From the IMG/VR virus record IMGVR_UViG_3300011405_000002, positions 1,451 through 65,450 of that record: 64,000 nucleotides of DNA, one strand, 5' to 3'. The stretch comes from a virus (Duplodnaviria > Caudoviricetes). Positions 25,987 through 30,070 of this stretch are shown in pieces (the stretch's first letter is position 1; each line of letters starts with the position of its first letter). The translations under genes and the position numbers were made by a program. The notes under the pieces were generated by a model, which was given only the letters and a program-made list of their open reading frames with translations, made no database searches and had not been told where the DNA came from.

Positions 25987-26424
25987 GTCGTGTCTCGTCT
26001 CAATCGCTGCCTCATGAGATGCGAAACGTATGAGTGACGATATATCGGCAGTCTCGCAAGGTCACATGCCTGAGCAGTGCCGACATATCGGCAGTTCGGG
26101 TGCCTGGATGATAGCGAAGACCTTCAGAGTTCGGATCGGGATGGTTGTCTGCTATGCGTAAATCGGTCGTTTACTGCATGTTGTCAGCCTGGACGCTATC
26201 TCCCTTGCCATCAACGCGCAATGATCCCCTCTATGTTACCCGTTTGTTGACCGCCACCCATGCCGGCCACCGCGGGCTGTCGGACTGGCAGGACTCGAGT
26301 CGATGGTCTTGCTGTAGGCTTTCTTGTTGTCGAGGGGGTCGCTGTTGGCGCCGGATAGGCGCTTGATCTCGGACTCTCCATTTTAAATTTCAAAAAACAA
26401 CTTTTGAGGTTTTCAGGAGGCTGG

Positions 26425-26673
26425 ATGAAGATTCGGAAGATTGACGTGGGATTCCTGCATTGGTGCCCTGGGTGTGATGAGGCGCATATCGTTGAGGTTC
26501 CGAGGTGGACGTGGAACGGAGATGAGGAAAGGCCAACTGTGACGCCATCGGTGAATATGCCGGGGAGATGCCATTACGTGTTGACAGGAGGAGTTATTCG
26601 ATTTTGCGGCGATTGTTCGCATGGGATGGCTGGTAAAGTTGTTGAGATGCCTGACTTTCCTTCCGACTGGTGA
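26425..26673 (+). CDS. DUF6527-like Zn-binding protein
   Basis: CPGC..AH...WTWNG...PT..PS....RCH...G.I.F..DC.H..AG; AGGAGG RBS. Confidence 0.7.
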   Translation: MKIRKIDVGFLHWCPGCDEAHIVEVPRWTWNGDEERPTVTPSVNMPGRCHYVLTGGVIRFCGDCSHGMAGKVVEMPDFPSDW

Positions 26674-26726
26674 ATGAACAAAAATAGTTCTTGCAACGTT
26701 TGTTAGTCTTCTGTAAAAGGGTTGCT

Positions 26727-28616
26727 GTGAATTATTACAATGACAACGATCCGGGAGCGGTGGGGTGGCTGAAAGGGTTGATAGCGAACGGGTTGATCTC
26801 GGAAGGGGTGGTGGATGATCGAAGCGTCGGTGATGTGCGGGGAGAGGATTTGCGGGGATACGAGCGGGTTGCTCTTTTCGCTGGGATTGCCGGATGGGAT
26901 CTCGCGTTCCAACTTGCAGGCTGGCCGGCAGGCCGACCTGTTTGGAGCGCCAGTTTCCCCTGTCAGCCGTTCAGTGCGGCCGGAAAAGGTAAAGGGGGCG
27001 AAGACGAGCGTCACTTGTGGCCGGTCGGACTCGGGCTCATCCGAGAGTGCAAACCTGAGTGCATTTTTGGGGAGCAGGTTGAAGCAGCGATTGGACACGG
27101 ATGGCTCGATCGAGTTTTCTCTGACCTGGAAGCAGAAGGTTACGCCTGCGGGGCGGTTATTCTCCCTGCTGCGAGCGTCGGCGCGCCGCATATCCGATCG
27201 AGGATATTCTGGGTGGCGGTCTCCAGACACGGGAGAAAACCGCGGGGGAGCGTATCAGGATCCAGAGAAGGCGCTTCGGCTCGCCGAAGCGGGGCATCAG
27301 ATCAATCTGGAGGATCAGAGCATTCTGGCGCATTGGCCAACCCCGGACGCGAGCGAGGGTGGACCAAGGACTCCGGACGCCCGGAGAGGTTCAGCGCCGG
27401 GATTGAAGGCAGCTTCGCTTTTGGCCCCACATCCGGAGGTACCGGTCCCGCCGTTGCTAACCGGATGGGCTCGCCCATCCGCGCGCGGGAGCCAGGAGCA
27501 GCCGATAGGATCGTGGCAGACTCCGAAAGCCGAAGAGAAAGTTCGGAGCGAGGAGTTCCTGCGGGGGCGATCTCCGAATCCAGTGGAGGTTTTCGGTTGG
27601 ACGAGTCCAACCGCAGTGGACGGCAGGAGGGGCAGTCTTCCTCCGAGACCGACAGACACGGGAGTTCTGTTGAGCCAGATGGTAGCGGTGTCAGGCTGGC
27701 CGTCACCCCTTGCGAGCGAAGTTCGCCAAGGCTATCAGAATCGCCACAACGGGAAGAAGGGGAGTCAGGAGAGTTTAATCACGATAGCCATTCATGCAGT
27801 TTACGGACTGCCAATTTCTGGTCCGACTTCGATCTCGTCCCCTGCGCAGACGGGAAAGCGAGGCGCGTTGGCTGCCGACTTCAGTTTGTGGTTGATGGGA
27901 TTTCCGAGGGCTTGGCTGCTGGTAGGACAGCGAGTATTCGCGAAGAGGAGCAAGTAGATGGGGAGGCCGAGGATGGAAGATCCGCTTCAATTTTGCAAAG
28001 CTTGCGGGGCGCAGATGCACCGGCAGAGGTTTCCGAACGGAGCATTGGAGGATCTGACTCAGTTCCGCAAGAGGGTCTTTTGCAACCAAGCCTGCATGGC
28101 TGCGTGGATGATGAAACCTGTCGAGTTACTCACAGTCGAAACGAGCCGAATCCGCGCCAGGAAGAATCGGAAGCCAGCGTGCGAAACCTGCGGCCGGACT
28201 CGCCGCTTGGTCGTTCACCATATGGACGAGAACCCATTCAACAACGAGTTGTCCAACCTGAAGACGTTGTGCATTACCTGTCACAATCGCTGGCATTGGG
28301 AACATGGGAAGCAGAATTCGAGACGAGCGGCGCCATGCCTGGTTTGCTCAAAGCCTTCCAGGCGTCACCGATACTGCGAGAAGCACGCGGAACGTTTCCG
28401 GAAATATGGCGATCCGCTACTGACGAAACGAGGCAATTCGTTGGGCAGTTTCTTTGTGCGCGAGGTGTCAGATGGGATCTCGTTAAGATCCTCGTTCCTA
28501 CCAAAGAGCAACCCGGTAGAGTAAAACTCTTGAAGGGCGCCGGCAACGCGATAGTGCCGTGGGTGGCTGCGGAGTTTATCCGAGCGTTTTTGGAATGGGA
28601 GGCAGAGCAATGCTGA
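26727..28616 (+). CDS. C5-cytosine DNA methyltransferase, alpha subunit (motifs I-VIII and X)
   Basis: YYNDND, LFAGIAG (I), FPCQPFS (IV), GEQV (VI), PH.RSRIFW (VIII), C-terminal LKGAGNAIVP (X); GTG start inferred. Confidence 0.85.
   Translation: MNYYNDNDPGAVGWLKGLIANGLISEGVVDDRSVGDVRGEDLRGYERVALFAGIAGWDLAFQLAGWPAGRPVWSASFPCQPFSAAGKGKGGEDERHLWPVGLGLIRECKPECIFGEQVEAAIGHGWLDRVFSDLEAEGYACGAVILPAASVGAPHIRSRIFWVAVSRHGRKPRGSVSGSREGASARRSGASDQSGGSEHSGALANPGRERGWTKDSGRPERFSAGIEGSFAFGPTSGGTGPAVANRMGSPIRAREPGAADRIVADSESRRESSERGVPAGAISESSGGFRLDESNRSGRQEGQSSSETDRHGSSVEPDGSGVRLAVTPCERSSPRLSESPQREEGESGEFNHDSHSCSLRTANFWSDFDLVPCADGKARRVGCRLQFVVDGISEGLAAGRTASIREEEQVDGEAEDGRSASILQSLRGADAPAEVSERSIGGSDSVPQEGLLQPSLHGCVDDETCRVTHSRNEPNPRQEESEASVRNLRPDSPLGRSPYGREPIQQRVVQPEDVVHYLSQSLALGTWEAEFETSGAMPGLLKAFQASPILREARGTFPEIWRSATDETRQFVGQFLCARGVRWDLVKILVPTKEQPGRVKLLKGAGNAIVPWVAAEFIRAFLEWEAEQC
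26815..27957 (+). CDS. Overprinted +1-frame ORF, probable methyltransferase beta subunit (motif IX)
   Basis: SRLKQRL...LTWK..TPAGR, six W-x-[TSR]-P repeats, C-terminal F.LWLMGFP.AW; true start uncertain. Confidence 0.7.
   Translation: MIEASVMCGERICGDTSGLLFSLGLPDGISRSNLQAGRQADLFGAPVSPVSRSVRPEKVKGAKTSVTCGRSDSGSSESANLSAFLGSRLKQRLDTDGSIEFSLTWKQKVTPAGRLFSLLRASARRISDRGYSGWRSPDTGENRGGAYQDPEKALRLAEAGHQINLEDQSILAHWPTPDASEGGPRTPDARRGSAPGLKAASLLAPHPEVPVPPLLTGWARPSARGSQEQPIGSWQTPKAEEKVRSEEFLRGRSPNPVEVFGWTSPTAVDGRRGSLPPRPTDTGVLLSQMVAVSGWPSPLASEVRQGYQNRHNGKKGSQESLITIAIHAVYGLPISGPTSISSPAQTGKRGALAADFSLWLMGFPRAWLLVGQRVFAKRSK
27958..28524 (+). CDS. HNH endonuclease nested inside the methyltransferase alpha ORF
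   Basis: CETCG...VHHMDENPFNNELSNLKTLCITCH; ATG directly follows the beta TAG. Confidence 0.8.
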   Translation: MGRPRMEDPLQFCKACGAQMHRQRFPNGALEDLTQFRKRVFCNQACMAAWMMKPVELLTVETSRIRARKNRKPACETCGRTRRLVVHHMDENPFNNELSNLKTLCITCHNRWHWEHGKQNSRRAAPCLVCSKPSRRHRYCEKHAERFRKYGDPLLTKRGNSLGSFFVREVSDGISLRSSFLPKSNPVE

Positions 28617-29209
28617 AAGCCGCGATTTACATTCGTGTAAGCACTGCAAAACAAGAGGGCGAGAACCAAGCCACCGTCCTGCGGGAGTACGCGGCCCGGG
28701 AGGGTTGGTCGGTCGTGGAGTACGAGGACCAGGCTTCCGGGAAGACTTCGGATCGGGAGGCGTTTAACCGGTTGTTTGAGGATGCGCGGTTGAAGAAGTT
28801 CGATCTGGTGTTGTTTTGGGCGTTGGACCGGTTTTCGAGGGAAGGGGCGCTGAAGACGCTGGAGTTGCTGCAGGAGTTGAGTAAAGCGGGTGTGGCGTGG
28901 AAGTCGTACTCGGAGCAGTACCTGGATTCGTTGGGGCCGTTCGCGGAGGCGGTGATTGCGATATTGGCGGCGATCGCGAAGCAGGAGCGGATCCGGATCT
29001 CGGAGCGCACTCTTGCCGGCTTGGCCCGGGCGAACGCAGAAGGGCGCCATGGAGGAAGGCCGGCGCGGATCTTTGATCGAGAGAAGGTGGTGGCTTTGAG
29101 GGAGCAGGGAAAGTCCTGGAACCAGATCTCCGCGGAGATGGGGATAGCGAAGGCGACGGCGATGAAGGCGTTCAAGCTTGCCCCACCGTCCCCCACGGCA
29201 GTAGGATAG
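28610..29209 (+). CDS. Small serine recombinase (resolvase/invertase) with C-terminal HTH
   Basis: IYIRVST.KQ, SGK..DR, LDRFSR; C-terminal GRP...SWNQIS.EMGIAKAT. Confidence 0.9.
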   Translation: MLKAAIYIRVSTAKQEGENQATVLREYAAREGWSVVEYEDQASGKTSDREAFNRLFEDARLKKFDLVLFWALDRFSREGALKTLELLQELSKAGVAWKSYSEQYLDSLGPFAEAVIAILAAIAKQERIRISERTLAGLARANAEGRHGGRPARIFDREKVVALREQGKSWNQISAEMGIAKATAMKAFKLAPPSPTAVG

Positions 29210-29213
29210 CGCG

Positions 29214-29483
29214 ATGAATCGAAGAGGCTTCTTTGAGATTGTTTCAGCGTTACCGGTGCTCGGGTGGTTTGGTAGGAAGTTCTTCGAGCCAAAGCCGAAA
29301 CCTACCGGCGAAGTGTTCTTCAGCCATCCTGATCTCAAGTTCACGATCTCGGAGGATCCGAACTGGAAAGCCGCGTGGTCTCCAGACTTTCCGTTTTGGC
29401 ACGGCGAATACCCTGTGTACGAAATCAAACTTCCCGGCTGGAAAAAGGTCTACATCGATCCCGATCTGAAGGAGAAACCATGA
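29214..29483 (+). CDS. Small protein with Tat-like leader
   Basis: MNRRGFFEIVSALPVLG. Confidence 0.5.
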   Translation: MNRRGFFEIVSALPVLGWFGRKFFEPKPKPTGEVFFSHPDLKFTISEDPNWKAAWSPDFPFWHGEYPVYEIKLPGWKKVYIDPDLKEKP

Positions 29484-30070
29484 AGCGACGCGGATTTCTG
29501 AGTTGCCTGCCGTTCCTGGCGCCGGCCGTTGTGGCTGCGGTGCCGAAGCAGGAGAACCCGGATGACTTCGAATGGGAAGGCTGTCGGGTGAAGTGGCGGG
29601 ATTACGTTGGAGAGCAGGCGAGCGATCGACTGGAAGGATTCTGGACGGCGTGGCCAATTCGAGAGGAAGACCGCAATCGCCAGTATCCCTATTTCGTTTC
29701 GATGACAAGCCGGGACTGGAACGAAGAGTCAATTGTCAGTCGCTACAATCCCGGGAACGCGTTTCGCATGGGATGCCTGATGATCACGCGACAGAGTTCG
29801 GACGATGAGAAAGAGACCGCCAAGACGGCATCTCTCGCCGCCCTGAAGCAGTTCATCCTCGACGAGAAGAAGCCTGAGCCGGAATACACTTTCAAGTTTT
29901 CAGGATTCAAAGCGCCGGTTGGCGGTTCTTATGACCCAGCGAGCGAATTCCCTGTCGATCAAGTCGTGACCGTTGACCTTTCCGCGTATCACCCTGAAGG
30001 CGGCCCGCTCTTTGGTGAGGTGTTCTCAGACCATCCGTTATTGGACTATGCGAGGCTGAAGCGTGGCTGA
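29480..30070 (+). CDS. Hypothetical protein with Tat-like leader
   Basis: MKRRGFLSCLPFLAPAVVAA; AAGGAG RBS. Confidence 0.5.
   Translation: MKRRGFLSCLPFLAPAVVAAVPKQENPDDFEWEGCRVKWRDYVGEQASDRLEGFWTAWPIREEDRNRQYPYFVSMTSRDWNEESIVSRYNPGNAFRMGCLMITRQSSDDEKETAKTASLAALKQFILDEKKPEPEYTFKFSGFKAPVGGSYDPASEFPVDQVVTVDLSAYHPEGGPLFGEVFSDHPLLDYARLKRG

Follow-up and report, generated by a model that had tools for sequence, protein, structure and literature searches.

How can a complete HNH endonuclease gene lie inside a DNA methyltransferase gene whose own reading frame runs on without a stop? The question is raised by a locus in the 64,000-nucleotide stretch of DNA that we analyzed (the window; positions 1,451 to 65,450 of IMG/VR record IMGVR_UViG_3300011405_000002), which comes from an uncultured phage whose complete genome of 65.4 kb has terminal repeats. 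Three open reading frames (ORFs) in two frames are found here within 1.9 kb: the frame of a C5 DNA methyltransferase (alpha), an ORF nested within it (beta), and, directly behind beta, the HNH gene. The answer that we consider probable is a 'hidden HNH' homing-endonuclease cassette that does without splicing, like the ShiLan domain of mycobacteriophages. In outline, some 0.6 kb carrying the complete HNH gene would have been inserted into a loop just upstream of methyltransferase motif X, with the host frame as the cassette's stop-free -1 frame, such that ribosomes translating alpha would read straight through it. The features concerned are as follows.

26691-28616, + strand: alpha, the C5 DNA methyltransferase frame, open for 641 codons (ORF list, Pfam family PF00145, homologue alignments and an AlphaFold2 (AF2) model)
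26815-27957, + strand: beta, a +1-frame ORF of 380 codons nested in alpha, whose stop TAG (27955-27957) abuts the HNH ATG
27903-28511, + strand: the inserted cassette, some 203 codons when read with alpha (ends uncertain by +/- 2 codons), between ..VVDGI and PGRV..
27943-27950, + strand: the Shine-Dalgarno-like AAGAGGAG, 7 nucleotides (nt) upstream of the HNH ATG, read from the sequence
27958-28524, + strand: the HNH endonuclease ORF, 188 residues, in frame +1 relative to alpha, from ATG 27958 to TAA 28522-28524
28512-28559, + strand: host sequence resuming after the cassette, PGRVKLLKGAGNAIVP, with motif X (GN at 28542) and an AF2 confidence score (predicted local distance difference test, pLDDT) of about 90

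The preliminary description of the locus, made from the letters alone, had the HNH gene begin at the base after the beta stop in the same +1 frame, lie wholly inside alpha, and leave alpha stop-free as far as motif X. All of this is seen in the coordinates (ATG 27958 adjoins TAG 27955-27957, alpha is open over 26691-28616, and GN follows at 28542), and its count of three coding units in two frames of 1.9 kb is borne out at the level of ORFs. Only a single stop separates the beta and HNH ORFs in frame +1, and at the other end the last HNH codons and TAA overlap the host codons for PGRV. Alpha, with a likely start at GTG 26727 and a TGA stop at 28614-28616, runs from motifs I-VIII in its N-terminal part through a long linker predicted to be disordered, a C.DGK hairpin and the read-through of about 200 cassette codons to motif X. 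Its first 180 residues form the C5 cytosine methyltransferase core (PF00145, E = 6.7e-18 on residues 87-179, the sole Pfam domain in alpha) and its last 30 residues hold motif X. The catalytic FPCQPFS and GNAIVP, both invariant in the family by homologue alignment, are present, and all other family-invariant alpha residues are likewise intact, R610, L614, G618 and N619 being invariant in 45 homologues. Motif IX was found in the beta frame only, as a motif-IX-like LWLMGFPRAW near the end of beta, which also has W-x-T/S-P repeats and, judged by these, probably carries the target-recognition part as well. Beta tblastn matches fall under annotated phage C5 methyltransferase genes. AF2 gave pLDDT values of about 90 for alpha residues 10-180 and 616-641 and mostly below 50 for residues 192-379 and 395-615; alpha over beta scored about 33, and the alpha-frame reading of the HNH DNA, at 30-59, is predicted to be disordered, in agreement with the earlier impression that the alpha translation here looks like low-complexity filler.

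Homologues of alpha show the cassette to be an insertion. Among 120 of them the distance from C.DGK to GNAI fell into three groups (about 30, 40-72 or 170-258 residues), with the window at 234. When the window was aligned to methylases without the HNH, as the preliminary description had proposed, the extra 203 or so codons relative to the insertion-free P0014, P0054 and P0058 were placed between ..DGI and PGRV... In the related locus L086, an insertion-free allele, beta extends to 17 nt before the alpha stop; in cassette-bearing alleles beta always ends early, at a stop that shares the HNH frame and lies 0-6 nt ahead of the HNH start. Viral contigs scanned with alpha included no near-identical empty allele, and the junctions are not fixed to the base. 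Other public runs, of soil and freshwater metagenomes, yielded contigs that are 100% identical to the window and span both cassette junctions, which excludes an assembly artefact.

Bridging contig X8: 27816-28022 and 28483-28633
Bridging contig X11: 27846-27996

Our best argument for translation through the cassette comes from stops. As a chance test, synonymous HNH codons were permuted 5000 times with protein and codon usage kept. Across the HNH ORF the alpha frame has no stop, against a mean of 6.9 in the permutations, and zero was reached in none of the 5000; the third frame carries 7 stops where 7.7 are expected. Across beta, likewise, the alpha frame has no stop against 13.5 expected. Avoidance of host-frame stops recurred in 11 of the 11 loci tested (the window and 10 others), each with 0 observed against 3.8-11.2 expected; zero was never reached by permutation in seven of these and was reached with P = 0.0002-0.0104 in the remaining four, and the third frame in the permutation-tested loci carries the expected number of stops. 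The open host frame is kept by selection, beyond chance, and selection for an open host frame suggests that the frame is translated through.

The two frames are selected in different ways. Compared with L001, a relative with the same alpha/beta/HNH layout at 35% alpha identity, the window is 43% identical in the HNH frame (139 bits) and 27% in the alpha frame of the same DNA (47 bits). In four moderately diverged cassettes we compared changes by codon position in each frame, a comparison that the preliminary description had also suggested: substitutions gather at HNH third positions (e.g., 6, 14 and 43 by codon position), an excess that shows the HNH frame to be under purifying selection. Changes synonymous in HNH and nonsynonymous in alpha occurred at 2.0-2.9 times expectation, and changes nonsynonymous in HNH, which are depleted, at 0.3-1.1 times. 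Amino-acid constraint on alpha over the cassette gave no consistent signal when transitions and transversions were separated. Selection on the alpha frame is thus mainly for the absence of stops, and the HNH frame is selected as a protein. In one relative (L096:1001-2494) the HNH frame has an in-frame stop (..SSKHR*QSC..) and the methyltransferase frame is intact; this has the look of an endonuclease in decay within a host frame that is maintained, a stage to be expected of a homing element whose host gene the phage still needs.

We found no intron or intein core, as the first reading of the locus had also held. A permissive Rfam scan of 26000-29500 (E up to 1) gave no match, a search that divergent introns can escape given the limits of covariance models; the insert leaves room for an intron core of only about 55 nt upstream of the HNH ORF and about 0 nt downstream. 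Pfam placed no Hint domain in alpha (PF00145 being the only match), and since the HNH frame differs from the host frame and is preceded by a stop, an intein is impossible. Short contigs from one RNA-library run and three DNA runs contained no joint skipping the cassette, which is a weak test. The RNA-library run gave contigs over 26927-27690 and 28067-28217, but DNA may be present in a library of this type, and these contigs show neither transcription nor absence of splicing; stretches that no contig covers carry no information.

The HNH assignment rests on residues and fold together. Its Pfam match (PF01844) reached 20.8 bits, E = 4e-4, with the gathering cut-off at 21.4. The protein has an N-terminal zinc ribbon (C13, C16, C42, C46), an HNH core (C75, C78, H87, H88, N100, C105, C108, H109, H113) that is invariant in a 15-member alignment, and a C-terminal C..C...C..H finger; the catalytic His and Asn and the four zinc-binding Cys stand in the canonical order, with the fold in accord. 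AF2 modelled the HNH frame at pLDDT 86 as a string of domains, with a predicted template modelling score (pTM) of 0.47. Foldseek of this model against the PDB found no match at E <= 0.001. With VIA structural alignment of the core (residues 58-123), the best match was GVE2 HNH (Z 5.5, root-mean-square deviation 2.7 A, 63 residues aligned), followed by Gme, TagI, SciA and I-HmuI (Z 4.3), and nearly all top matches were HNH nucleases. The HNH family profile against the PDB matched the IscB HNH (E = 1.8e-4) and the McrA HNH domain.

The arrangement recurs widely. The three-ORF layout of the window and L001 is also found in L002, L003, L014, L087-L089 and L096-L099; the cultured Komagataeibacter phages phiKX1/2 have it too, without annotation. 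Beta is kept in L001 (30% identity, E = 5e-36) and in L086-L089. Ordinary single-chain C5 methyltransferases, too, carry homologues of this HNH (31-51% identity) in frame +1, at one of two further positions: directly behind motif IX (L009, L010, L012) or shortly ahead of it (L004, L006, L100 and Staphylococcus phage CUB-EPI_14 gp45). At all three insertion sites the HNH is in frame +1 relative to its host in every locus for which the relative frame was computed or printed, which would be expected if the stop-free frame were a heritable property of the cassette. We examined 20 distinct loci and four near-duplicates at the DNA level, and in each the HNH lay inside a C5 methyltransferase gene.

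This family shows signs of mobility. About half of the close methyltransferase homologues lack the cassette, and on the tree those with it and those without it are interspersed; insertion-bearing and insertion-free proteins alike are 60-68% similar to the window in the N-terminal domain. On a tree of that domain the insertion state of 106 labelled sequences requires at least 23 changes, and shuffles give 25-41. Two homologues, P0011 and P0118, are 78% identical in the conserved N-terminal domain and 99% identical in the insert. In the DNA of L088 and L099, about 590 nt are 99-100% identical, a tract that begins at the FWSDF/C.DGK codons, takes in the cassette and ends at the GNA(I/V)VP codons; ahead of it the two are 55-83% identical, and beyond it they have little in common. 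Such a near-identical tract in diverged flanks is a homing signature, with co-conversion of flanks. The cassette family thus combines a disjunct distribution with transfer between diverged methylases.

We therefore return to the proposal of the preliminary description, that an endonuclease colonised a gene without splicing by landing in a tolerant linker and keeping the host frame open. The insertion alignments, the absence of a splicing element, the stop avoidance and the mobility all sustain it, and stops in the alpha frame of homologues across this segment, which it had named as telling against it, were absent from all 11 loci tested. In the cycle that we envisage, read-through would lengthen alpha by some 200 disordered residues, placed after the C.DGK hairpin and ahead of the motif X helix, where the family already has a disordered linker of about 190 residues, overprinted by beta. 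The HNH would be translated separately, from its own ATG behind the GAGGAG Shine-Dalgarno, and probably also by restart of ribosomes finishing beta at the adjacent TAG. During co-infection it would likely cut cassette-free methyltransferase alleles, with repair copying in the cassette and its flanks.

Several points weigh against this account. Its basis is purely computational, and it is from this that we infer that full-length alpha is made and active, that the HNH cleaves and that this copy still homes. The PF01844 score is just below the gathering cut-off and the structural Z is modest (at most 5.5). For the window cassette no near relative was found (the insert reaches 36% identity at best, alpha 55%), and this copy may be old and fixed. 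Shine-Dalgarno sites comparable to the window's occur in the CUB-EPI_14 locus (L082; AGGAGG), L003 and L014 and are lacking in L001, L088 and L089, so that the mode of HNH expression is not uniform. Finally, the confinement of all examined HNH family members to methyltransferase genes also fits a functional tie between the two proteins.

Such a tie is at the heart of the alternative that survives best, which we nonetheless regard as unlikely: the HNH would be a domesticated partner of the methyltransferase that houses it, for example cutting unmethylated DNA of the host or of a competitor, with the phage genome protected, so that the locus would form a one-locus restriction-modification-like or exclusion module. 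Apart from the exclusive residence in C5 methyltransferases at three sites, the strong purifying selection on the HNH frame agrees with it, as does the placement of the HNH in alpha/beta hosts for translational coupling to the specificity subunit, beta. Yet the association is explained equally well by a site preference shared by a homing lineage, and a domesticated partner accounts poorly for the absence of the HNH from so many close homologues, for near-identical cassettes in diverged genes with converted flanks, as homing predicts, and for the copy with a broken HNH in an intact host frame. A little less likely still, in our estimate, is a further possibility in which the HNH lineage has specialized in C5 methyltransferase genes, with a stop-free 'passenger' frame as part of its inheritance and a functional tie to the gene that houses it; in alpha/beta enzymes it would be expressed by restart after beta, and it would perhaps spare DNA methylated by the host enzyme. 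The inherited passenger frame would explain the constant +1 position, and the methyltransferase gene would amount to a restriction-modification-like module of a single locus that spreads by itself.

We also asked whether the methyltransferase might be disabled or in pieces, with alpha dead from its 200-residue insert or motif X made as a separate peptide from TTG 28530. It is true that the insert comes between the C.DGK hairpin and motif X, which have to pack against each other, that phages can dispense with their methyltransferases, and that genes split by free-standing endonucleases are known. Set against this are the intact invariant residues of alpha, the tolerance of a long disordered linker at the same place, and the open frame of every cassette-bearing locus, including the one with the decayed HNH: neither a dead gene nor a separate motif X peptide selects for an open frame, and we rate this reading as improbable. 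Removal of the cassette by an unrecognised self-splicing intron or non-canonical intein, with the open host frame incidental, is more improbable again, for even though HNH genes are often carried by phage group I introns and by some inteins, and covariance models can miss divergent introns, the lack of Rfam matches, of room for a core and of skipping joints, the position of the HNH out of frame and behind a stop, and the strong selection against host-frame stops, needless for a spliced element, all speak against it. A beta-HNH fusion by stop read-through was considered and rejected, given the single-chain hosts that have no beta ORF and the variation of the stop itself (TAG, TAA, TGA).

The dual-coding cassette that we favor has a close counterpart, and the idea is not new here: mycobacteriophage methylases were the first case to be published, in 2025 (PMC11855218). 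The ShiLan domain adds 202 codons, none of them a stop, to the mycobacteriophage methylase gp65, and a 195-residue HNH is hidden in another frame of it; it and the insertion in Pacc40 gp60 are described by Gosselin et al. 2023 (PMC9957025) and Arsenault, Gosselin & Gogarten 2025 (PMC11855218), and this computational work, noting a disjunct distribution and no intron or intein, has proposed the same model (PMC11855218). In both systems about 200 codons are inserted at a conserved methylase site, the host frame has no stop and its reading is predicted to be disordered, and another frame holds a complete zinc-finger-flanked HNH whose stop lies at the 3' junction; neither an intron nor an intein could be detected in either, the distribution is disjunct, which implies transfer between diverged methylases, and all of the evidence is computational. 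They differ in frame (+1, the second frame, for the HNH here, and the third in ShiLan; PMC11855218), in start (here ATG, about 55 nt inside the insert and with a clear Shine-Dalgarno before it; in ShiLan a leaderless-type GTG 18 nt in, with no ribosome-binding site) and in host, which here is an alpha/beta split C5 methyltransferase with the HNH directly after the nested beta. A likeness of the start of the insert to the sequence after the insertion site, of the kind reported for ShiLan, was absent in the window and six relatives; it was found only in L014 (in DNA; local score 20, reached by 0 of 300 shuffles). When two HNH family members were compared by tblastn with 50,697 phage records, no mycobacteriophage matched, and as far as these matches go the HNH lineage appears to be separate from that of ShiLan. 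A different HNH lineage, a different frame, an alpha/beta split host and putatively three proteins from two frames would be what the present case adds.

Two other comparisons are of use. C5 methyltransferases of two polypeptides include M.AquI and M.EcoHK31I, the latter with a beta of 61 residues. As in M.EcoHK31I, the putative smaller polypeptide here holds motif IX in an alternative frame and alpha keeps motifs I-VIII and X; unlike there, beta has 380 codons, alpha over beta is disordered filler, and an HNH is nested. Known HNH homing endonucleases, for their part, are borne by introns or inteins or are free-standing (I-HmuI; the T4-type Mob/Seg enzymes of 'intronless homing'). The present family resembles them in the DNA-binding zinc modules that flank the nuclease, in a conserved phage gene as target, in co-conversion of flanks and in a cycle of gain and decay (L096), and is unlike them in having no splicing element and in not being intergenic, the host protein being kept by dual coding. 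In M.EcoHK31I the beta polypeptide is, as here, encoded in another frame inside alpha (PMC2836561).

If our interpretation is right, dual coding with a read-through host frame would be a third route for homing endonucleases to live inside protein-coding genes, other than RNA or protein splicing, and the present locus would be an independent and statistically well-supported case of it. The route would be no mycobacteriophage oddity, being widespread in C5 methyltransferases of uncultured phages and unannotated in cultured Staphylococcus and Komagataeibacter phages. For annotation, this means that such methyltransferases are mis-split or their nested genes missed; for studies of overlapping-gene evolution, it would offer natural two-frame DNA over 0.6 kb, here putatively encoding three proteins.

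Individual relatives gave further observations. The Komagataeibacter phage phiKX1 locus (L083:1836-3495; LC644975.1) has only fragments annotated, as 'hypothetical protein'; its open frames are 549 codons for alpha, 376 for beta and 173 for HNH, and the HNH frame extends past the alpha stop. Gp45 of Staphylococcus phage CUB-EPI_14 (L082:1342-3147) is annotated as a DNA-cytosine methyltransferase, with an unannotated +1 HNH ORF at 2501-2980 that is 43% identical to the window HNH and lies behind AGGAGG; the phage has a separate annotated HNH endonuclease, gp47, two genes downstream of gp45. L012 has at 1538-2182 a second long +1-frame ORF, of 215 codons, in the same 823-codon methyltransferase frame as its nested HNH, which may be another nested endonuclease-like gene. 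The HNH ORF of L014 (2986-3488) also crosses motif X. Pseudo-motifs (L.P.LHG, LR.MR, P.EQ....L..LS) appear in the host-frame reading of the cassette in L100:1036-3192 and many alpha homologues; these are by-products of the conserved HNH frame and could pass for a methyltransferase domain. Weak HNH matches (E about 0.02) in Brucella phage records (e.g., NC_019446.1:3617-3964), under large terminase and HNH endonuclease annotations, may represent another overlapping or mis-annotated HNH.

Around the window locus itself, a promoter scan of 26300-29400 found no sigma-70-like site, and terminator-like sites were at chance level. One downstream neighbor completes the picture.

28610-29209, + strand: a small serine recombinase (PF00239, E = 2e-33)

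Its ATG overlaps the alpha stop at 28610-28616 (ATGCTGA), an overlap that suggests translational coupling of the recombinase to the methyltransferase. Pieces 100% identical to the window over 26400-29400 were present in soil, freshwater and freshwater-sediment runs of separate studies (2017-2025), and from these the phage seems to be widespread and its sequence stable.

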